DNA of 64,000 nucleotides, from assembly GCA_030428205.1 (NCBI GenBank), contig JAUIBK010000016.1:11454-75453 (forward strand). Direction: 5' to 3'. Position 1 is the first letter of the stretch. Each line of letters opens with the position of its first letter. The DNA comes from a bacterium. Its GTDB lineage: Bacteria > Bdellovibrionota_C > UBA2361 > RFPC01. Below are positions 13,590 through 54,995 of this stretch, piece after piece. The translations under genes and the position numbers were made by a program. The notes under the pieces are model-generated. The model had not been told where the DNA came from and did no database searches. It saw only the letters and a program-made list of their open reading frames with translations.

Positions 13590-14732
13590 ATGAATTGCAA
13601 ACAAAAATGTCTTTTTATTCTTAAAAGTCTCTCGATAGTTTCACTTTTTCTTTTCGCTATGAGCCCTACTGCTTATTCAGAGGTTACCTGTGTGAAGGTC
13701 AAGTTGAATAAAAAGAAGAAGCCAAAGCTCGTTACTAAAGTTTTCCCAGATGCTTGCCCCGGAAAATTTGTACAGATTCAAGATACCAACGCAACTGTTC
13801 AAGGTGCGCAGGGGCCAAAGGGAGATACTGGGGCGCAAGGACCTCAAGGGCAGACTGGCCCGCAAGGCCCACAAGGATTGCAGGGGCTCCAGGGAGTGCC
13901 GGGAGTCGATGGGGCAGATCTGTATGAACGTACCATTGTCGTTCCTGCTGGAGAGGCGCCAACGGAGAATGGTAGTGCCCTTCTGAATGCTGCTTCTGGG
14001 CTTGTTGGAACTGTCGATGCTCCTTGGATGATTGAGCTTGAGAGCGGCACGTATGATCTTGGAGACCTTGTTCTTGAGCTTGGGACTTACGTGTCTCTTC
14101 GTGGAGCTGATACTCATAGCACTGTTGTGACAGGTTCGTCGTCCAGTGCAGTCGTTGATACAAATACTGGTAGCTCTCTTCGCAATATGTCAATTTTTGG
14201 AACTGCTATCACCACAAGCACCTTGTCTGGAGTTGTACGTGTTGATGACGACAACGATGTTCTTATTGAGAATGTCAAAATGACAAGCACTGGTCGTGGC
14301 TTGCTACTTGAGAATTGCTCTGGAGTGAAAATAAATCGTATCGACATTACAGCAGCTGGTTATGCTATTAATACGGATCATTCATCGCTTGATACCACGA
14401 TTTCAGATTCTCAAATAACCTCAACCGGTGATTCTGGTGTCGATTTTGGTACTTCGACTTCCCATACTATCGTTGAGCGTTGTGTCGTTACTGCCACGGC
14501 AATAGATCAGAGTGCTCTGCGAAGTAGTGGAGGAAGTGGTATCGTTCGTCATTCAACTTTGATTTCAAGCTTTGGTGGCACACTTGAAAGCTCAAATGGG
14601 AACACTGACATCGTAATCTCTCAAACGTATGTTGATGTTGAAGATTCTTTCAACATGCATTTTACAGGGGGAACAGCATCTTGTACTGCTATTTCCACAG
14701 ACAGTACATTTAGCACAACTACTTGTCTTTAG
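13590..14732 (+). CDS. Secreted collagen-like triple-helix repeat protein with a C-terminal right-handed beta-helix (pectate-lyase-like) domain
   Basis: Signal peptide, 15 G-X-Y repeats (GAQGPKGDTGAQGPQGQTGPQGPQG...), then Thr/Ser/Gly-rich beta-helix-type repeats. Confidence 0.65.
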   Translation: MNCKQKCLFILKSLSIVSLFLFAMSPTAYSEVTCVKVKLNKKKKPKLVTKVFPDACPGKFVQIQDTNATVQGAQGPKGDTGAQGPQGQTGPQGPQGLQGLQGVPGVDGADLYERTIVVPAGEAPTENGSALLNAASGLVGTVDAPWMIELESGTYDLGDLVLELGTYVSLRGADTHSTVVTGSSSSAVVDTNTGSSLRNMSIFGTAITTSTLSGVVRVDDDNDVLIENVKMTSTGRGLLLENCSGVKINRIDITAAGYAINTDHSSLDTTISDSQITSTGDSGVDFGTSTSHTIVERCVVTATAIDQSALRSSGGSGIVRHSTLISSFGGTLESSNGNTDIVISQTYVDVEDSFNMHFTGGTASCTAISTDSTFSTTTCL

Positions 14733-14828
14733 TGTTGCGATAAGTTCATTTGAAACAGCACGAATACTCTCTTTTCGCCCCGCTGAGCGGTTTGCGGCGG
14801 GGCCTCTGCAGAGTTCAGACAAGCCTCA

Positions 14829-17378
14829 TCAGGTATTACTTTCTATAAGATAGTTGTCGTCATCTGAGGCATCTTCTTCAGAGCATGCATATGTTTTTAC
14901 TGGAAGTTGTTTCGCAGCACCAATCGCTTGCTTAGCGAGTCTATGAATACGTTGGAGCTTTTTCTTTCGCTTTGTGCCTTTGAGGGCAAGGCGTAGTACT
15001 TTCTTCGCTTGTGACTTTAATGAGCGTATTGAATTTATGTACGTTTTCTTCTCTGAGCGAGTCTTCTTTTTTGTACAGAGAAGGGAGTCGTTGCATTTGA
15101 GAAGTTGCAGTTTCGTAACATCTCTACTTGCGCCTATCGCTTGTTCGTGAAGGAGGTTAAGAGTAGTAGACTCTTCAAGCAGTGCAGTCTGGTTGCTGCT
15201 TGACGTGTATGCTTTATGAGCAAGAGAAAGAGCAAGTTCTACCATGGCGGTGAGTTTTCGATTCGCTTTGATTATTTTCTTGCTCTTATTTTTTGTCTTA
15301 CAGTTATAATCTGCGAAATTTCTTTGTCGTACGACGACTGCTGGAAGGACTTCGCCTGTTGAGAGAGCTATGGAGTTGGTAGCGAGTGTGAGATCCTCAC
15401 GGTCTATGCTCAGGTTGTAGTCTCCTGCTGGGACATTCTGAAATGTAAATGTGTTTCCTTCTTCCAGAAGAGTGACGAAGGAACGAGGATGAGAAGATAT
15501 TCCACTCTCAGAAGTTGCGTCTGCTTCTCCTCCTGTTCTTGGAGTAAGGTGAGCTTGGGTGCCTGAGAGATCCGAAGAGGCTCCACCGACAGTACCACGA
15601 ACATCATAAAGGTCTTCTCCATCCTCTTGGCTTGTAGGTGTAGGAGCGGGAAGAGGTGGCGCATCGGGGAATTCCGCTGGTTGTACAACTTCGGTGAGAG
15701 CCGTAAGCTTTTCGTTTTCCCCAAGAGTAAGAAATGGACCATAGAGAAAACTACCAGGATGAGGGATGACAAATCGAATCGTATTCGTATAGCCATAGTA
15801 TGCTACATAAGGAGTTTCAGCGACTGATGTATCAAGATGTTGAATGCCAACTATTCGAGGAAATTCTTCTGGGTGAACACCGATACTGCCATACCAGTCC
15901 CCATTCTCGTAATCAAAACTTGGAAGTTCTTCTCTCCGAACCCAATAACCAGCGGTGTGCACGAGCTGATCATCATCAAAACTAGCGAAGCTCGAAATAG
16001 GGCTTATGAAGTTGACAAAGCTACTTGATACGCTTTTATCACCTCGATCGACTGTTTTATAGAGATAGAGGTTTCTGAAGTAATCATCCGACACAGCTTT
16101 TTCGACGAAAAGGACCGCATCACCATAGAATCCAAGACTTGAAAGAAGGGTAGAGTCTCCATTCAAAGAGAGGAGAGTTTCTTCATCGTCTCCATCTACC
16201 AAGTCAACACTCACTATGGTCTGTGAATCACTGCAGTAGTAGAGTCGGCCATAAATATCATCAGCTAACAGGCAGTAGACCGAAGAGTTTTGAAGAGTGA
16301 GAAAGTCTTCCACGTTTGTGCCATCTGCATCGGCCATTTTAATTTTGACGGTATTTCCGCTTGCATCCACCCAATACAGTTTTTCTGTCTCCACAGAATA
16401 GCTCATTGCCTTTACGTCTCCGATAGTATCGGAATCAAATACAGGCACGATTTCTTTCGTTATGTTTGTCCAAAATATTCGGGAAGTATTGAGTTGTGTA
16501 TCACGAACAGCAAAGTACATTCTTGTATCATCATAGATGCTCGAGGTGGGCTCCTGTGTGTCCCCTGTAGTAAAGTTCGCTATGATATCATAACCTTTTT
16601 GAGAAGCGACTGCGCTTAGAGAAGACCCATTTGTATTGACACTGCTGAGAAGTGTCCCTGAAGAAGGTGCGCCAATGAAGAGCAGCTTTTGAAGAGTGTT
16701 ATCATATGTAATTCCACGGGGAGAATTTGTACTTGAAGAGAGGAATGCTTCAGGAGAACTTCCATCGGTATTACATCGATAGATGGCATCTTTTGTATGG
16801 TTCGACCAATAGAGTTTTCCATTGAATAGAGTAAGATTGGTGAGGGTGTCTCCTTGGGCAATATTGTCGAAGAGAGAAGATTGATTGAGTCCATCACTGA
16901 GGTTCACACGCTCGATTCCTTCGAGGCTTGCGTAGTACAGAGTGTTTGTTGACTCGCTTACGAACAGACCATAGGGGTCTGACATACCAACAAGAAACAG
17001 CTCTTTGTTGCTACCATCTAGATCGGCTCGATAGATAGCTGCTTCCTGTGGATCGCTCCAGAGTATTTTATTATTTGTCAGGTCGAGTGCGATATCGTTT
17101 ATGGAGCTACTTGCTGAGGCAAAAATGGTGACGATATTGCTCCCATCCCGATTGGCTCGTTTTATTGAGGGGCCAGAGTCACTGTAATACAGGTGGTTAT
17201 TCTCAGGATCGTATGCGAGGGCTCTCGTTGCTGACGCAATGAAGGTTGAAGTTACGCTAGTCTCGCTGTCAACTAGTTTAATATCGCTGCCTGTAGCAAC
17301 AAGGATGTCCGCTGATAAGGGAAGCGACGATAGAAGGAGCAAAGTAAAGAGTATTCGAAGGAGGCTCATATATTTCAT
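14829..17378 (-). CDS. Secreted YWTD/LDL-receptor class B beta-propeller repeat protein with a Lys-rich C-terminus
   Basis: Signal peptide. Repeats of type LYYSD...IKRANRDGSN, ILWSD...IYRADLDGSN and LYWSN...IYRCNTDGS. The C-terminal tail is KK-rich. Confidence 0.6.
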   Translation of the reverse strand: MKYMSLLRILFTLLLLSSLPLSADILVATGSDIKLVDSETSVTSTFIASATRALAYDPENNHLYYSDSGPSIKRANRDGSNIVTIFASASSSINDIALDLTNNKILWSDPQEAAIYRADLDGSNKELFLVGMSDPYGLFVSESTNTLYYASLEGIERVNLSDGLNQSSLFDNIAQGDTLTNLTLFNGKLYWSNHTKDAIYRCNTDGSSPEAFLSSSTNSPRGITYDNTLQKLLFIGAPSSGTLLSSVNTNGSSLSAVASQKGYDIIANFTTGDTQEPTSSIYDDTRMYFAVRDTQLNTSRIFWTNITKEIVPVFDSDTIGDVKAMSYSVETEKLYWVDASGNTVKIKMADADGTNVEDFLTLQNSSVYCLLADDIYGRLYYCSDSQTIVSVDLVDGDDEETLLSLNGDSTLLSSLGFYGDAVLFVEKAVSDDYFRNLYLYKTVDRGDKSVSSSFVNFISPISSFASFDDDQLVHTAGYWVRREELPSFDYENGDWYGSIGVHPEEFPRIVGIQHLDTSVAETPYVAYYGYTNTIRFVIPHPGSFLYGPFLTLGENEKLTALTEVVQPAEFPDAPPLPAPTPTSQEDGEDLYDVRGTVGGASSDLSGTQAHLTPRTGGEADATSESGISSHPRSFVTLLEEGNTFTFQNVPAGDYNLSIDREDLTLATNSIALSTGEVLPAVVVRQRNFADYNCKTKNKSKKIIKANRKLTAMVELALSLAHKAYTSSSNQTALLEESTTLNLLHEQAIGASRDVTKLQLLKCNDSLLCTKKKTRSEKKTYINSIRSLKSQAKKVLRLALKGTKRKKKLQRIHRLAKQAIGAAKQLPVKTYACSEEDASDDDNYLIESNT

Positions 17379-19872: not shown

Positions 19873-20652
19873 TTACTTCTTCGATTTCTTCTTCTCCTTC
19901 TTTGGCTTCGGTTTCTGCTCTTTTTTTGGACTGGCTGCCTTCGCCTGCTGAGCAAGTACACGTTTCTTGTGTCGCTTGAGCATACGCCGCTCTTTTCGTT
20001 TTGCAGCAGCAGGGGTAAGAATGGGAAGCTGTTCTTGGAAGCCGAGGGCAAAGCGTGCTCGCTCTGTGCGACCAGCAATCACGCGCTTATGCCATCCAAC
20101 AACTGAGAGGTTGATGTCGTGCCATGGACCTTCTTTAGAACATGCAGCTCGATATGCTGCGTTATCGTCATTTGGTCCAACGATATACTTGCCTCCAGAT
20201 TGAGAGTAGAATCCCGTGTTTCCGATCTGCTTACCCTTTGGGGTATCAGCTTTCTTTGCCTTGGGAGGCTTTTCTTTACCTTTCTCCTTTTTATTCTTCT
20301 TGCCATCTTTCTTTGTTTTGGATGGCTTTGAATCAGGGGAAGGCTCTGTAGCGACTGCGCCAATCGCTGACTCCGTAACTATAGCTCCAACAGCTGCTTC
20401 CATCATGCTTGAGCCATCAGGGTCAGCCTCTTGCTCAACAGTTATGCTAGCGAAATCGATACTTGAGTCGCCAGCAATGGGCAGGATCTCGTCGTCCTCT
20501 ACGGCAATCGGGATCTCGCCGACTTCTTTGCCGGAGCTATCTTGAGGAGCTTCGTCTTCGAGTTGCTCGAGAGGGAGACTCTGGCTGTCGTCAGGCGTTT
20601 CGGTTGCTTCAACTTCGTGTGTTTCATTATTTTCTCCTGAACCTTTGCTCAT
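19873..20652 (-). CDS. Hypothetical protein with an acidic N-terminal half and a histone-H1-like Lys-rich C-terminal tail
   Basis: N-terminus rich in D and E. C-terminus KRKERRMLKRHKKRVLAQQAKAASPKKEQKPKPKKEKKKSKK. The start at MSKGSG is preferred, with AAGGAA RBS 8 nt upstream. The ORF track extends to 20739. Confidence 0.5.
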   Translation of the reverse strand: MSKGSGENNETHEVEATETPDDSQSLPLEQLEDEAPQDSSGKEVGEIPIAVEDDEILPIAGDSSIDFASITVEQEADPDGSSMMEAAVGAIVTESAIGAVATEPSPDSKPSKTKKDGKKNKKEKGKEKPPKAKKADTPKGKQIGNTGFYSQSGGKYIVGPNDDNAAYRAACSKEGPWHDINLSVVGWHKRVIAGRTERARFALGFQEQLPILTPAAAKRKERRMLKRHKKRVLAQQAKAASPKKEQKPKPKKEKKKSKK

Positions 20653-20734: not shown

Positions 20735-20784
20735 CTCACCTGGCATCAAAAGTGGCATGCTCTCCACTGTTGATGCCAGGTGAG
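20735..20784. promoter_or_regulatory. Perfect 15-bp stem-loop in the 5' region of the 19873-20652 gene
   Basis: ctcacctggcatcaa-N20-ttgatgccaggtgag. The loop contains an inner gtgg/ccac stem. Confidence 0.4.
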
Positions 20785-24121: not shown

Positions 24122-24196
24122 ATTGAATCGCAGAGGCGCTCAGAGGAACACAGAGGAGAGCGATAGAACATCCTCTGTGCGCCTCTGTGATTCAAT
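24122..24196. terminator. Long imperfect hairpin between the convergent pnp and cls genes
   Basis: attgaatcgcagaggcgc ... gcgcctctgtgattcaat 18-bp outer stem. Inner cacagagg/cctctgtg stem. Confidence 0.4.
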
Positions 24197-35568: not shown

Positions 35569-35633
35569 TCCGTTACTCCTTTCGCTGGAGAAAGCCCTCT
35601 TTTGTTTGCACCCATGCAAACAGTAAGCTCAAA

Positions 35634-35677
35634 GGGGCCCATGAGAGTTGTGTCTCAACACAAGTCTCATGGGCCCC
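35634..35677. promoter_or_regulatory. 19-bp stem-loop between the upstream gene and csrA. It may be a leader element or a terminator.
   Basis: ggggcccatgagagttgtg-tctcaa-cacaagtctcatgggcccc, with one mismatch. Confidence 0.4.
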
Positions 35678-35846
35678 TCACTCTCAAGGATGTAAAGTAA
35701 CAGATGCGTTACAGGAGTAGCTCTCAAATCGAGAGCGAAAGAAACCCTATACGCTTTTGTCCCCAGTGAGGGGAGTATCGAGGCGATTCAAATCTTAGTC
35801 AAGTTCGCAGGAATATAGATGGGGAGGTTGGAGTTCGTCGGGAGGG

Positions 35847-36473
35847 CTAGCGGATATCGTCGTCTGAGGTATCAAGAAAAAAGATACCAGATACGAGGTC
35901 GATAACTTCATCCCCGCAGATACCGACATATCCACCAACAAAGAGATCGAGCCCTAGGCCAAACTCGGCCTTACAAATATCTCTATCTTTTGAGGCGATA
36001 AAGGCAGGACCAGCACCGAACTCGTTGGAAGACTCAACCATCACAGGAGCCCTCCGACCGAAGTTTCCGACCCGCAGGCTTGCTGGCGAAACAGAGCGAT
36101 AGCCAACCTGACCGTATTTGGTTACTCGAGCAACTCCGCCAAATGAGGTGCCAACTCCAACATCAAATTTGACCACATCAATCACATCAAGTACGCGGTT
36201 TACCGGCCAGAGGAGCACTTGTTGCCACCACGGTTTGCTAAGATCTTTTTCAACCACTTCAAAGTCTCCCCAGCCAGGTTTTGGGCTTGCCGTTACCCCG
36301 TCTTTTGGAGTGACGAGGTCTTTTTCTTTGACGGTTGAGGTTGATGGATCCGCAAGGCCGGGAGAAGGGGGAAGGAGGGAGAGGCACACAAACGCACAAC
36401 AGAGTGCTCGGAGCGAAGACCAGGCAAAAAATGAGCGGTTACGAATCATTGCAGTGACGCGACCAATAGTCAT
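35847..36473 (-). CDS. Secreted hypothetical protein
   Basis: Signal peptide-like N-terminus. No recognisable domain. Confidence 0.4.
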   Translation of the reverse strand: MTIGRVTAMIRNRSFFAWSSLRALCCAFVCLSLLPPSPGLADPSTSTVKEKDLVTPKDGVTASPKPGWGDFEVVEKDLSKPWWQQVLLWPVNRVLDVIDVVKFDVGVGTSFGGVARVTKYGQVGYRSVSPASLRVGNFGRRAPVMVESSNEFGAGPAFIASKDRDICKAEFGLGLDLFVGGYVGICGDEVIDLVSGIFFLDTSDDDIR

Positions 36474-38145
36474 CTAATTTACGTCGAACCTCTCTTACGA
36501 GAAACAAGCTTCCAATGATATTTGGAAAAGCCATGCTCAAGATCATAGCATCTGAAAAATCGAGCACATCTTTGAGGCTACTAATAGCTCCAAGATAGAC
36601 GAAGAATACAAATGTTAGCCGGTAAATGGATAACGTCTTTTGACCAACACCTTTACCGAAGTGATCGAGCAAGTATATCCAACCACGTTCACCGTAATAG
36701 CACCAGGAGATCATTGTAGAGTAAGCAAAGAGACCGATGCAGACAGTGAGCACCGTTGGAAACCACGGAAGAACCGTTCGAAAGGACTCTGTAGTGAGAG
36801 TTACCCCAATATTTCCACCTTGAGCAACGAGAGCAGGATCAGACCAAGTGCCAGTGACGATAATAACGAGTGAAGTCATAAGACAGATCAGGATGGTATC
36901 GATACACGGTCCGAGCATGGCGACCATTCCTTCTCGGATTGGTTCATCAGTTTTTGCAGCGGCGTGAGCAATAGCAGCACTACCAAGCCCAGCTTCGTTT
37001 GAGAAAGCAGCGCGCGTTATCCCACGAATAATGACACCGACAACGCCACCAAAGGCAGCGTTTGACGTAAACGCCATTGTAAAGATGAGTTGAATAGCAT
37101 GAGGGATTTCAGAGAGACTCGTTAATATGACAATCAGGGAAGCGAGAATATAAAGTCCACACATGGCAGGAACGATCTTAGATGTGGCAGCGCCAATGCG
37201 TTTAATGCCGCCAAGGATCACAACAGCTACAGCACAGGCCATGATGATTCCAATGGCATGACCAGCGTTGTTGCCGAGACCAAATGAGCTCGTAAATGCT
37301 TCAACGGTCTGATTCGCTTGGAACATATTTCCGCCGCCCACGGCTGCTCCCATGACCATAAAGGCGTACATGATAGCGAGAACTTTTCCGAGCCCAGCAA
37401 TGAGCGTTCCTTTATTCTTCAGCCCAAGATCAATGTAATACATCGGGCCACCTGAGATTGAGCCATCATCATTTACCTGACGGTACATCTGAGCGAGTGA
37501 GCAGCTATTGAATTTAGCTGTCATACCAAAAATCGATAACAGCATCATCCATAACACAGCTCCTGGCCCACCGGTCTGGATAGCAAGAGCAACTCCAGCG
37601 ATATTTCCTAGGCCCACCGTAGCAGAGAGTGCACTAGTGAGAGCACGGAAGTGAGAGATTTCACCAGCATCTTCTTCTTTGTCATATTTTCCACGAACAA
37701 CATCTATGGCGTGGCGAAATCCGCGGATATTGATAAAGCCATGGTAGAAAGTAAAAAAGATTGCTCCGAGCGAAAGTATAGTTACAAGAAAAGGAACGGG
37801 GACAGTTTGCATTTTAGGCGTTCCATCGTCACTGAGTACGGGAGTGCCATCAGGCTTGATCTGTTCAATTTCAAAAGCACCAAAGGCAACGTCAAAAAAG
37901 AGCACAGAGAAGATAGCGCCGTTTACTTGGGAGAGCAGGGTTGGTTGTTCTTCGTCGGGGGAGGGTTTTTTCGGAGTTGCACTCTCTTCCATAGCCGGAG
38001 TCTGGGACGAAGCAGGTGTGTCTTGAGCGGTGGCGGAAAAAGAAGCGAGGACAAGGGCGCAAAGGAAGAGCAGTGAAAGGAGAGAACGTGTTGTACGCTG
38101 CATAGAAAGGAGCCTCCGTGAGATGGGTTGTTCAGATGATGGCAT
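36439..38145 (-). CDS. Sodium:alanine (amino acid:cation) symporter, AGCS family
   Basis: GGPGAVLWMMLLSIFGMTAKF and a polytopic membrane profile typical of AGCS. Confidence 0.7.
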   Translation of the reverse strand: MPSSEQPISRRLLSMQRTTRSLLSLLFLCALVLASFSATAQDTPASSQTPAMEESATPKKPSPDEEQPTLLSQVNGAIFSVLFFDVAFGAFEIEQIKPDGTPVLSDDGTPKMQTVPVPFLVTILSLGAIFFTFYHGFINIRGFRHAIDVVRGKYDKEEDAGEISHFRALTSALSATVGLGNIAGVALAIQTGGPGAVLWMMLLSIFGMTAKFNSCSLAQMYRQVNDDGSISGGPMYYIDLGLKNKGTLIAGLGKVLAIMYAFMVMGAAVGGGNMFQANQTVEAFTSSFGLGNNAGHAIGIIMACAVAVVILGGIKRIGAATSKIVPAMCGLYILASLIVILTSLSEIPHAIQLIFTMAFTSNAAFGGVVGVIIRGITRAAFSNEAGLGSAAIAHAAAKTDEPIREGMVAMLGPCIDTILICLMTSLVIIVTGTWSDPALVAQGGNIGVTLTTESFRTVLPWFPTVLTVCIGLFAYSTMISWCYYGERGWIYLLDHFGKGVGQKTLSIYRLTFVFFVYLGAISSLKDVLDFSDAMILSMAFPNIIGSLFLVREVRRKLDDYWSRHCNDS

Positions 38146-38181
38146 ATTTTTGTGGGATCTTGCTAGCAGTAATGGGGGAGT

Positions 38182-38343
38182 GAGGCGGAAGCGGATACCA
38201 AGAATAAGACCAAAACGAAGATATAGGTCAAGGCGGAGGCTGAGAAAAAGATAAAGAGCAAGGAGATCCTATTTCTCAGCCTCTATCTCAGTCTTCGTCT
38301 AGATCTTGGTTTTGGTCTTATTCTTGGCCTTGGTCTCCGCCTC
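38182..38343. repeat. Long imperfect palindrome of 6-bp tandem units, copy A. The same family is at 52864-53082.
   Basis: Arm GGCGGA AGCGGA TACCAA GAATAA GACCAA... pairs with TCTTGG TTTTGG TCTTAT TCTTGG CCTTGG TCTCCG, with a perfect 18-bp core. Confidence 0.6.
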
Positions 38344-38365
38344 TAAAAAACAAGCAAAAGTTCTA

Positions 38366-38821
38366 TCAAAAATACACCACCGTAACCCCAGCATTCCCCT
38401 CATCAACCTTAAAATGCTTTACAGCTGATATCTCTCTCAATCTCTTATGAACAGCTTCCTGTACTTTCCCTGTTCCAATCCCGTGTACAACACGAAACGA
38501 ATCGTGACCAGCACGAAGTGCAGCATCAAGTGCGCTGTCGAGAGCTTCAAGTGCTTCGTGTACACGCTTGCCGTGAAAATCGATGGATGTTGGGGCCGAG
38601 TGTAGCGAATGTGCTTGTTTTGCTGGAGAGGTAAAAGCTCCTTTGGGAATCTCTTCTCTCTTAGATTTTTTCTTTTCAATTTTACGTAAATCTTGACACT
38701 TGCAACGCATTGAGAGGTTGCCAATTCGCACTTCAAACGTATTGCGAGCGAGTGATTGAACAATAATCCCGGATTTATTTAGCGGGATAACGAGGACACT
38801 ATCTCCTGGTTGAAGTTGCAT
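38366..38821 (-). CDS. Smr (small MutS-related) domain protein
   Basis: DFHGKRVHEALEALDSAL...VVHGIGTGKVQEAV Smr domain signature. Confidence 0.65.
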   Translation of the reverse strand: MQLQPGDSVLVIPLNKSGIIVQSLARNTFEVRIGNLSMRCKCQDLRKIEKKKSKREEIPKGAFTSPAKQAHSLHSAPTSIDFHGKRVHEALEALDSALDAALRAGHDSFRVVHGIGTGKVQEAVHKRLREISAVKHFKVDEGNAGVTVVYF

Positions 38822-51493: not shown

Positions 51494-52831
51494 ATGAGTG
51501 AAAGAGCTGTGCTTGACGGCAATGAGAAACCCTCACCTTTATGCTCGAGTGAGCTTGGGGGCTGTGCGATGAGCCAAGAGCATCGATCTCTCGGAAAGCA
51601 AGTCCGCTCTGATTTCCCGTTCTTTGGTGGGGATAGAGACCAAGAGTCATCAAGAATAGCGTTTCTTGATTCGGCGGCGAGTGCTCTTAAGCCACAAGTT
51701 GTAGTGGATCGCATGTCTCATTACTTGCTCCATGAGCATGCAAATATCCATCGAGGTGCATACAAGCTTAGTGCTGATGCTACGGCAGCATACGATCTCG
51801 CTAAACTCCAAGTTGCTCAATTTCTCTCAGCCCCATCGGCTTCTTCTATTATTTTCACACGAGGGACTACAGAGGGAATCAACCTGCTGGCTCATAGCTT
51901 TGGAGAGAGGCTTGAGAAGGGTGATAGAGTCTTGCTCACTACGCTAGAGCATCACAGCAATATTGTGCCTTGGCAGCTTCTTGAAATGAGAAGGGGAGTA
52001 GGCGTGTCGTACGCTGATATTCGAGATGACGCCGCTCTTGATCTCGCGGATCTCTTTGCAAAGCTTCGCCAAGAGAAACCAAAATTACTTTCGATTACCG
52101 CCGTTTCAAATGCGTTTGGGACTATTATTCCACTAGAGAAGATTATTCCAGTTGCACGAGAGGTCGGTGCGCTTGTTCATGTAGATGCTGCTCAAGGAAT
52201 TGTGCACTTTCCGCTTGATGTTCAAAGTCTCGATATTGATTTTCTCACCTTCTCAGGTCACAAGATCTACGGCCCAACGGGAATTGGTGTCTTGTATGGA
52301 AAGCCGGAGCTTCTGGAAGCGATGCCTCCATACCAAGGCGGAGGTGACATGATCCATGAGGTCACGCTAGACGGTTCAACCTGGGCTGAATCACCTCGTA
52401 AATTCGAAGCAGGTACGCCTGCTATTGCTGAAGCTATTGGACTCGGTGAGGCCTTAGCCTATGTCACCGCACTTGGACGACAAGAGCTTCTTGACTATGA
52501 GTCACAATTGTTTGAAGAAGCTTTTGAACTTCTGTCGCGTGAGCCTGGGGTTACTCTTTATGGCCCTGCCACGAGCATTCAAAACGAGAGAAGCAAAGTA
52601 CAGACGTCAATCTTACCTTTTACCGTAGAAGGTGTGCATCCACATGATATTTCAACTATAGCGGACAGTTTCGGTGTTCAGATTCGTGCTGGCCACCACT
52701 GTGCTATGCCGGCGTTACGGAGACTAGGAATCCAGTCGACGGGAAGAGCGAGTATTGGTGCGTATACTATCTTAGAAGACTTCGAACTTCTGTGTGAAGC
52801 TATTCGGCGGGCGAGGAAGACTTTTCAGTAG
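51494..52831 (+). CDS. sufS: Cysteine desulfurase, SufS/CsdA-type class V aminotransferase
   Basis: RSDFPFF, FLDSAAS..KP, SGHKIYGPTGIGVLYG (PLP lysine) and a C-terminal catalytic Cys region. The true start may be the internal Met at 51569. Confidence 0.8.
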   Translation: MSERAVLDGNEKPSPLCSSELGGCAMSQEHRSLGKQVRSDFPFFGGDRDQESSRIAFLDSAASALKPQVVVDRMSHYLLHEHANIHRGAYKLSADATAAYDLAKLQVAQFLSAPSASSIIFTRGTTEGINLLAHSFGERLEKGDRVLLTTLEHHSNIVPWQLLEMRRGVGVSYADIRDDAALDLADLFAKLRQEKPKLLSITAVSNAFGTIIPLEKIIPVAREVGALVHVDAAQGIVHFPLDVQSLDIDFLTFSGHKIYGPTGIGVLYGKPELLEAMPPYQGGGDMIHEVTLDGSTWAESPRKFEAGTPAIAEAIGLGEALAYVTALGRQELLDYESQLFEEAFELLSREPGVTLYGPATSIQNERSKVQTSILPFTVEGVHPHDISTIADSFGVQIRAGHHCAMPALRRLGIQSTGRASIGAYTILEDFELLCEAIRRARKTFQ

Positions 52832-52863
52832 ATCGTGAGCTCCCTAAAGTTTTTCACTGTCTA

Positions 52864-53082
52864 GGTCTTAGCCTTAGTCTTAGTCTTAGTCTATAATCTT
52901 GGTCTTGGCCTGATTCTTAGCGTTGGCCTCCGCCTATAAAAACTCCCACTTTCACCTCAGCATGCACGCGTACGGGAACGTCTACGTTAACGTTTCATTT
53001 TAAATGCGAGGATCAGGCTGATGCCAAGAATAGGACCAAGACCAAGATGTAGACTAAGGCTAAGACTAAGGCTAAGGCTGAG
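52864..53082. repeat. Long palindrome of 6-bp tandem units, copy B. The arms are separated by an 88-bp spacer.
   Basis: Left arm CTTAGC CTTAGT CTTAGT...TCTTGG TCTTGG. The right arm is its reverse complement (CCAAGA...CTAAGG CTAAGG). The spacer contains acgttaacgt, gcatgc and acgcgt palindromes. Confidence 0.6.
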
Positions 53083-53254
53083 GGGGGTAGGGGGTTATCT
53101 TTTGGGCGGGGGAGGGAACCTAAAGCTCCCAAGATACCCCGGTAAAAAATACCGGGATATCTTAGTTGCATCAGGAACAGGACAGGCAACCGTGCATCGC
53201 ACCTATGCATGGCACCAAACGTTCTGCAATTATTGGGGGTGAAAGGACTGTTGT

Positions 53255-53902
53255 TTATACCACCTGATCAACAACAATACTTCCGGATTGAGCAAGCACC
53301 TCTTGTGAAACTTGTTCCGATACTTCGGTTTCAACCTTGAGAGGTTCAAGGCCGAGATCGGCTCGTTTTTGTGATTCGTATGCTATGAGTTTTTCTTCGA
53401 TCAGAGATTTGGTTTCTTCAATCCCTGCTTGAACTCCTTCGATCTCAAAAGCTCCGATGCCTTCGAGGATATCAAATGCTTCGCCGTATCCTGTTCCTAT
53501 TCCACTACGGATGGTGGACATAAACGAATCTAGCAGCTCTTCGCCTTCAAGCTCGGGGTTCTGTTTTGCATACACATCAAAGAAGGCTGTAGCACCTTGC
53601 ACGATACGCTCAGCCGTTGCTTCGGGAGTATGTTGTTCAGGTTGTAGCGACTCAACTCCGTCTGGAACTTCCGATGCGAGAATTTCGTTTAGCTTTTGAA
53701 TGACTTGATCTGTTGTAATCGTCAGTGAAGTTGGAAGATCAAGCGGGGAAAAGGACACCTTAGCTGCTGGTTCTCGCTCAAACTTAAGAGCTGAGTCGAG
53801 CACGTATTTGTCAGCCTGGAGTTTTCCAGTTTCACTTGATACGTTGGTGAGGGATTTAGGAACGGTTGTTCCACTTTGGATGAGAGATTGGCTACCTTCC
53901 AT
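53255..53902 (-). CDS. Hypothetical acidic protein
   Basis: ORF with a Glu-rich C-terminal half. No recognisable domain. Confidence 0.4.
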   Translation of the reverse strand: MEGSQSLIQSGTTVPKSLTNVSSETGKLQADKYVLDSALKFEREPAAKVSFSPLDLPTSLTITTDQVIQKLNEILASEVPDGVESLQPEQHTPEATAERIVQGATAFFDVYAKQNPELEGEELLDSFMSTIRSGIGTGYGEAFDILEGIGAFEIEGVQAGIEETKSLIEEKLIAYESQKRADLGLEPLKVETEVSEQVSQEVLAQSGSIVVDQVV

Positions 53903-54933: not shown

Positions 54934-54995
54934 TACCACTTTGATAGAGTTTTTGATCCTGTGAAAACAGGATCAAAAACTCTATCAAAGTGGTA
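54934..54995. repeat. Perfect palindrome with 28-bp arms and a 6-nt loop
   Basis: taccactttgatagagtttttgatcctg-tgaaaa-caggatcaaaaactctatcaaagtggta. No flanking T-tract. Confidence 0.7.

Follow-up and report, generated by a model that had tools for sequence, protein, structure and literature searches.

The window analysed here, a 64-kb stretch of a single bacterial contig, is ordinary chromosome (ligA, gltX, pnp, acnA, fliC and the like), and its nearest TyrS sequences are only 63% identical, carrying the labels Oligoflexia, Bdellovibrionota or 'Deltaproteobacteria'. Two long inverted repeats stand between its genes. The first, copy A (38182-38343), has arms of 57 nt each (38182-38238 and 38287-38343) which are 77% complementary. 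It lies in the spacer between an Smr-domain gene and the gene of an alanine/glycine:cation symporter (AGCS), both on the minus strand, which is the gene context given in an earlier note on this DNA: the Smr stop codon (38366) is found 17-22 nt upstream of the palindrome in the direction of transcription, and the palindrome ends about 35 nt ahead of the first AGCS ATG. The AGCS reading frame has two in-frame ATGs, at 38145 and 38103. Since a GGAGG stands 8-9 nt upstream of the second, and the same start is called in relatives, the start is probably 38103 and not 38145. A flanking block, CTAGCAAGA...ATATGCCATCAT, is conserved in a relative.

The second element, copy B (52857-53085), lies between the convergent ends of a SufS-type cysteine desulfurase gene and a DUF5610 gene. 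Its arms are found at 52865-52929 and 53015-53082, with their inner parts 85-88 nt apart, and they are complementary over 34 nt at 79% and, in a 27-nt outer segment, at 96%. One arm begins 27 nt past the SufS stop codon; between the other arm and the DUF5610 gene lie a hairpin and a 3' block of 140 nt that is conserved. The coordinates of the arms at their full extent, and of the surrounding genes, are collected in Table 1.

Table 1. Positions of the repeat arms and adjoining genes in the window, with a similar element from a metagenome
Feature	Coordinates	Strand	Description	Basis
Arm A1	38180..38262	+	AAG/purine-rich strand; head GAGGCGGAAG at left, outer side; 13-14 phased hexamers	nhmmer E = 2.9e-17
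Arm A2	38265..38348	-	head GAGGCGGAG at right, outer side, TTTTTT before it	nhmmer E = 2.8e-21
Arm B1	52857..52941	-	head TAGGCGGAGG toward spacer; 1-nt insertion after AAGATT	nhmmer E = 5.6e-22
Copy B spacer	52942..53004	.	between the heads	alignment vs sister contig L051
Arm B2	53005..53085	+	head GAGGATCAGGCTGATG toward spacer; AAGRCT-hexamer tail	nhmmer E = 4.2e-22
AGCS gene	36439..38145	-	alanine/glycine:cation symporter	ORF list
Smr-domain gene	38366..38821	-		ORF list; Pfam PF01713 on called gene
SufS gene	51494..52831	+	SufS-type cysteine desulfurase; convergent with DUF5610 gene	PF00266 on orthologue
DUF5610 gene	53255..53902	-	convergent with SufS gene	
Ga0187893 element	e.g. L022:2925-3085		copies on L018, L022, L026, L027, L031, L036, L042, L045	

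The repeat unit

Both palindromes are composed of the same unit, an arm of ~80 nt made up of 13 in-phase hexamers with the consensus RAGRCY, or RGYCUN on the opposite strand. Read from its head, the arm runs (T)5WW-AGGCGGAG, then the core CCAAGAATARGACCAARACSAAGAT, then TAG, and finally a tail of AAGRCT-type hexamers; a 25-nt core of the unit is CCAAGAATAAGACCAARACCAAGAT. The window holds the unit four times, as two inverted copies at each locus, and the four arms can be aligned over about 85 nt once two of them are reverse-complemented. The arm order is opposite at the two loci, as had been described: at locus A the GGCGGAG end of each arm (the head) points outward, and at locus B it points inward.

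Copies A and B are real and homologous, far beyond what chance would give. An nhmmer profile of the arm finds exactly these four arms in the window and no other match, with E values from 1e-17 to 1e-22. Runs of at least five in-phase NAGRNN hexamers are likewise confined to the four arms, with 0.06 expected per shuffled window, and TRF returns periods of 6, 12 and 18. The proposal that the two loci form one family with a genuine 6-nt periodicity is supported. Moreover, whether as many as 2 or as many as 3 mismatches are allowed, the 24-nt core occurs 3 times in the window as against 0 in 100 shuffles.

The nature of the periodicity, however, is not quite that of the '6-bp tandem units' in which it was first described, in that the 6-nt period holds but a strict tandem repeat does not, the arms being phased RAGRCY arrays. 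Among 80 hexamers from six arms (the four of the window and the two at site B of a sister species), the information at positions 1 to 6 is 0.46, 1.45, 1.19, 0.98, 0.60 and 0.14 bits, which makes A2, G3 and R4 the best-conserved positions. A decayed microsatellite was considered and rejected on these values: its mutations should be spread evenly over the six positions, and the information is uneven, from which it follows that the array is a phased one. Two further details of the first description need adjusting, since the perfect core at copy A does exist but has 19 nt (CCAAGAATAAGACCAAAAC) rather than 18, and the spacing of 31 nt between its arms is true only of the innermost GAGGCTGAG/CTCAGCCTC pairing.

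Within the window the arms are 60-76% identical to one another, with the highest value, 76%, between A2 and B1. Partner arms, at a mean identity of 65%, are no more alike than non-partner arms, at 66%. In other words, the conserved unit is the single arm of ~80 nt and not, as had been suggested, the palindrome.

Retention and loss in related bacteria

Among the relatives is a sister species ('Bdellovibrionales bacterium', GCA_020434525.1), with a protein identity of 75-77% and with synteny kept at both sites. Its DUF5610-SufS site carries copy B, again with the heads inward, and the possibility raised at the outset, that the family might show no conservation in relatives, therefore does not hold. 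Between the two species the copy B arms are 67-68% identical and contain no 6-nt indels, the length changes being limited to a single base in the interior of one arm and to a gap of 5 nt just beyond an arm boundary, whereas the four-fold degenerate sites of the DUF5610, AGCS and Smr genes are only 36-40% identical. This contrast points to purifying selection on copy B. By our own estimate from hexamer frequencies, unrelated arrays with the same hexamer profile would be expected to reach an identity of ~55%, such that the excess of the arms is modest; what appears to have survived the near-saturation of neutral sites, in this comparison of one species pair, is the hexamer profile with its phase, together with the number of units and the core.

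The substitutions that have accumulated since the split follow the hexamer, with 13, 5, 6, 9, 5 and 14 at positions 1 to 6. They are under-represented at positions 2 and 3 (p = 0.04), and position 5 is also avoided. The equal number of hexamers in the two species, despite near-saturated synonymous sites, speaks against the replication-slippage hotspot that had been considered; in addition, no length heterogeneity is seen among three public contigs of the same strain, from two sequencing runs, which are identical across A or B. As the unit has been retained at one site ever since the two species diverged, it is probably functional.

The spacer of copy B is poorly conserved. In the sister species it is ~150 nt long and largely unrelated (48% identity with 51 gap columns against L051), with only ~20 nt conserved, AAAATGAAACGTTAAC. 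An inversion of the spacer between the species was rejected, given that its left end is homologous in the same orientation.

Copy A, for its part, is absent from the Smr-AGCS site of the sister species, where the flanks, TAGAACTT... on one side and ...CTAGCAAGA..ATATGCCATCAT on the other, are conserved. Between them lies an unrelated palindrome (L008:188-276) with 29-nt arms that are 93% complementary and a folding z score of -6.1. Given conserved flanks around an unrelated hairpin, what is conserved at site A, as judged from its predicted fold, is a strong hairpin at that position and not the sequence of copy A. The loop of the sister palindrome reads GGTCTTA..CCAAGAA, which is faintly like the core of the hexamer unit.

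More distant relatives, with DUF5610 identities of 67%, 56% and 48%, show short hairpins of the ordinary kind at site B, or lack a spacer there; the element is therefore dispensable. The Smr-AGCS spacer of one distant relative (L058, GCA_030431715.1) contains short phased runs of NAGGAN and NAGGTN on opposite sides, and its fold is not significant (z = -0.4). The same contig has further long intergenic palindromes, at 14689-14816, 15044-15124 and 20200-20310, with 47-nt and 33-nt arms.

Folding and a role at gene ends

As RNA, both loci are predicted to fold far more stably than shuffled controls, which answers the earlier call for folding energies: copy A gives -79.8 and -91.1 kcal/mol on its two strands (z = -7.4 and -8.0), and the two strands of copy B give z = -8.8 and -8.4. 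Pairing, however, appears not to be what is selected, given that the similarity between partner arms does not exceed that between non-partners. Only 3 columns have changed on both arms between the species (p about 0.05), and no consistent asymmetry in G-U wobbles between the strands is found. Selection appears instead to act on the phase of the hexamers, A2, G3 and R4 being the positions most conserved.

Neither locus is a canonical intrinsic terminator, in keeping with the first description of the element as something other than a simple hairpin terminator: there is no U-tract or T-run after the arms on either strand, and a terminator scan gives no match at A or B. In this regard the window contains other long, near-perfect hairpins just downstream of genes, at 54934-54995, 24122-24196, 35633-35678 and 20735-20784, with stems of 21-29 bp and again no U-tract; one of these gene-end hairpins follows pnp and another precedes csrA. 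Together with the sister hairpin at site A, they make a hairpin at such positions the norm of the lineage, and they suggest that a hairpin without a U-tract is its usual transcript-end signal.

It is well supported that the element is a lineage-specific, non-coding cis-element situated just downstream of genes. From this, a role at transcript ends or as an insulator is inferred, termination being deduced from position only. The explanation that we tentatively prefer is of a non-coding module at gene ends which forms a long RNA hairpin and acts as a terminator, insulator or stabiliser. Since the unit always comes as two inverted copies, every transcript through it carries one purine-form and one pyrimidine-form arm, between which a hairpin of -80 to -100 kcal/mol can form. 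At locus B each of the convergent transcripts would expose its pyrimidine-form arm first, as would those of the sister species and of a family of elements from the metagenome Ga0187893 (see below). The YC series of that arm would be enough to fill all six clefts of the Rho primary site at 12-nt spacing; the purine-form arm, transcribed next, would then close the very long hairpin, which could block or pause the polymerase and shield the 3' end. The hairpin of locus A would keep Smr apart from the promoter region of AGCS.

The involvement of Rho in this scheme deserves closer consideration. Its primary binding site is known to take up 60-80 nt, with YC dinucleotides bound in clefts 9-13 nt apart (PMC6144790), and stem-loops are reported to be common at the 3' ends of Rho-dependent transcripts; rut-like features are also frequent in random sequence and, as such, are weakly specific (PMC13613805). 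The pyrimidine-form arms are 78-85 nt long and 62-78% pyrimidine, with a YC dinucleotide every 6 nt; in all six, C accounts for 24-34% and G for 13-20% of the bases, YC dimers number 14-22, and (YC)N9-13 occurs in chains of 6-7. All six thereby agree with the published description of a rut site, a segment of 60-80 nt past a stop codon with C in excess of G and YC dimers 9-13 nt apart (PMC6144790). At locus B the likeness to a Rho-dependent terminator extends to the arm that starts 27 nt past the stop and is followed by a stem-loop. Set against this are the strict 6-nt phase, a fairly conserved G in the pyrimidine arm, which is unfavourable for Rho, and the probable burial of the arm within a hairpin of great length, none of which is a feature of rut sites. 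Moreover, the argument from Rho loading is inapplicable at copy A, where the purine arm comes first.

Neither Rho nor pairing fully accounts for the strongest conservation, that of AG/CU plus the R/Y position. It is this unexplained, phase-locked conservation that keeps a periodic protein-binding array viable, be it TRAP-like on RNA or ribbon-helix-helix-like on DNA. Indeed, the suggestion of such an array in the earlier note seems to be strengthened, in that conservation is specific to the hexamer phase and the arms appear to change far more slowly than synonymous sites. As the AG/CU phase is conserved more strongly than the pairing, the hairpin on its own may not be the selected feature, and the pattern suggests that the periodic AG/CU array is recognised by a putative oligomeric protein which reads its sequence. 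Candidate readers are a TRAP-like protein, a ribbon-helix-helix-like protein or Rho in an unusually sequence-specific use. In the most specific version of this idea, which at present seems rather unlikely, the phased (N-A-G-R-C-Y)x13, or its CU complement, would be a platform for a ring or filament protein that takes up one triplet per six nt.

Other explanations and known systems

The element could instead be selfish, a decaying non-autonomous MITE or foldback element, with sub-repeats that served as transposase-binding sites and without a host function. It is known that some MITE and foldback elements have long inverted repeats built from short sub-repeats, and the long inverted arms of short periodic units found here are of that kind. 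The sister species lacks copy A at its orthologous site, assemblies break within the arms (L002, L055), and the reticulate similarity between arms, with A2 closest to B1, suggests exchange between copies. Mobility also has support from outside the window. A scan of metagenomes with the core pattern gave 41 loci, mostly chance or coding matches, but the metagenome Ga0187893 holds at least eight copies, more than 90% alike and some of them truncated, of a palindromic element of ~145 nt. Its arms are phased NAGAxx hexamers (AAGAAT AAGAAT AAGACC AAGACA AAGATT...) with the termini CAATGGCGTCAACTTAAGG, which form terminal inverted repeats, and the sole complete copy, on L022, has the 9-bp direct repeat GGCCTTACC on both of its sides. 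In position the copies are intergenic and mostly lie between convergent genes, with the pyrimidine arm first. However, beyond the searched pattern the likeness of this family to the window unit is limited to the phase, such that it is an analogue and not a proven homologue; its organism, whose proteins are without names, shares no genes with the window, and the tetranucleotide correlation is only 0.51-0.67.

The window copies themselves do not have the appearance of recent mobility. At 60-76% identity they are old, with no sign of a recent burst; on inspection of the sequence no direct repeat or target-site duplication flanks A or B, and the two share no terminus, nor is there a transposase among the about 30 annotated genes of the window. 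Copy B is fixed at one site, where it has changed far more slowly than neutral sites with its arm length and phase intact, which is unexpected under neutral decay, and the opposite arm orders at A and B are left unexplained by any one transposon structure. A purely selfish origin is consequently doubtful.

Searches elsewhere added little. Viral contigs, plasmids and phages gave no match, and Rfam 15 none at the gathering threshold, its sub-threshold matches being plant miRNA hairpins at 38-41 bits against gathering values of 144-184. A scan of a genome collection with AAGAATNRGRCCAARACNAAGAT gave only chance matches (Tolypothrix, SAR324), with a pattern that is too strict even for the sister arms, and nothing relevant was found in the literature on hexamer palindromes, on the core sequence or on repeats in Oligoflexia.

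A further alternative places the recognition on DNA, with the arms as arrays of 6-bp subsites bound cooperatively by a small dimeric protein and serving as an operator, insulator or segregation site. The model here is that of ribbon-helix-helix operator and centromere arrays, such as the omega heptads and short-repeat parC sites. Contiguous arrays of 6-8-bp subsites, in direct or inverted orientation, do exist, some with more than 10 subsites and with information in 3-4 bp of each. The arms are alike in this respect: the information is held in 3-4 bp (AGR, less so C) of each 6-bp unit over 13 contiguous units, both inverted arrangements are found, and phase and unit number are conserved between species. 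The surroundings, on the other hand, fit poorly. The adjoining genes are Smr, AGCS, TyrS, SufS and DUF5610, with no gene for a ribbon-helix-helix, Par or other DNA-binding protein next to the element, the region is chromosomal and housekeeping, and locus B, between convergent gene ends, offers no promoter for such regulation. Such an array is accordingly improbable.

Less probable again is a role of the purine-form arm as RNA, in which its NAG triplets would be bound by a TRAP-like ring protein, with binding in competition with the hairpin as a switch for read-through. Each arm does offer 11-13 NAG triplets with fixed 3-nt spacers and a competing RNA structure adjoining, and the array at locus A is in what may be the leader of an amino-acid transporter gene. 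In the targets of TRAP, too, 9-11 NAG repeats are spaced by several residues that are not conserved; the preference at N, however, is there G ~ U > A > C (PMC1474065), as compared with A > G > U > C in the arms (A 44, G 23, T 10, C 3). The spacers of the arms, moreover, are partly conserved (RCY). Position is also against it, in that the conserved locus B is at 3' ends with no downstream gene, and the leader-like locus A is the one which is not conserved. The phylum is a further difference: outside Bacillus and its relatives TRAP is not known, and no gene for it is known in this lineage.

Finally, the arms might encode small peptides, which could be Arg/Pro-rich (from AGR), Leu-X (CTN NNY, on the other strand) or hydrophobic in the manner of a signal peptide (LVLVLFLASA). 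The phased pattern is compatible with Arg AGR or Leu CTN codons, the order of Leu codons in the arms (CTT > CTC > CTA > CTG) is that preferred by the genome, a GAGGA stands 8 nt ahead of an ATG in B2, and a metagenomic contig (L038) has tandem small reading frames of the same hexamer type. Nonetheless, this explanation is scarcely credible. In a comparison of all six frames over the six arms, none keeps both a start and a stop throughout; in several arms a start codon is missing altogether, B1 is interrupted by a 1-nt indel, and the two species differ in how the frame is set against the conserved flanking block. As to codons, only 22% of the Arg codons of this genome are AGA/AGG, and Gly GGA/GGG never occurs in the arms. 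No gene is called at either locus on public contigs, and the arms have no Pfam or NCBIfam matches. The candidate dipeptide-repeat frames, K/T, R/P (Arg-rich), L-X, L/V hydrophobic, S/W and a third frame of the purine strand, were all rejected as not conserved. The Arg-rich reading frame at 38030-38254 does exist and, as had been supposed, is spurious, with no frame conserved and with Arg codons that are rare in the genome.

On L038 itself (Ga0307377_10377479), positions 1-1058 hold ~8 tandem small reading frames of 45-68 aa, composed nearly entirely of CTTGGT-type hexamers and without Pfam or NCBIfam matches. Two frames are open: a (Ser-Trp)n frame, in which an AGGA ribosome-binding site is accompanied by ATGA stop/start overlaps and by a conserved N-terminus, MKSxFNA(E/D)S, and a (Leu-Gly)n frame.

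Among known systems, the gene-end module that we prefer is close to the REP, BIME and REPIN elements of proteobacteria. These too are intergenic at the 3' ends of genes, come in inverted pairs both head-to-head and tail-to-tail, form hairpins in transcripts and have been credited with the roles proposed here, as terminators, mRNA stabilisers or insulators. Alternating inverted pairs at gene 3' ends are found at both A and B. The unit is different: that of REP is an imperfect palindrome of 20-40 nt, whereas the arm is ~80 nt long, purine-rich on one strand, made of 13 phased hexamers and not self-complementary, such that hairpins arise only between the two arms. As compared with REPINs, moreover, no RAYT gene is seen, and there are two loci within the 64-kb window.

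The element thus falls within the known category of gene-end palindromic repeats and is a modest curiosity rather than a new kind of system. The evidence of phase-specific constraint nonetheless makes it somewhat more interesting than a simple repeat. For the well-known repeats of this category the usual explanation is pairing on its own or selfish spread; here the signal is the 6-nt AG/CU phase. If the conservation of phase holds in more genomes, it would point to a partner that binds nucleic acid periodically at the gene boundaries of a little-studied phylum of predatory bacteria, and would provide a concrete sequence motif with which to find that partner. Were the arms indeed a platform for a ring or filament protein, they would represent a previously undescribed class of periodic, selection-maintained elements at gene boundaries in Bdellovibrionota-like bacteria, and at least one other organism, known from a metagenome, would have a mobile relative built alike. 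If the conservation of phase is not upheld, the element would be another lineage-specific REP- or MITE-like repeat.

A separate observation concerns the non-coding block of ~140 nt found on the minus strand at 53095-53254, directly 3' of the DUF5610 stop codon, which is 81% identical to that of the sister species, as against 36-40% at four-fold degenerate sites, and has no Rfam match. It contains two minus-strand hairpins, one of them at 53133-53165, and 8 of the 8 one-sided changes in their pairs keep the pairing. The motif CCCCCAA, right after the DUF5610 stop, is found in more distant relatives as well. From this pattern of conservation the block is a candidate 3'-UTR element or small RNA.
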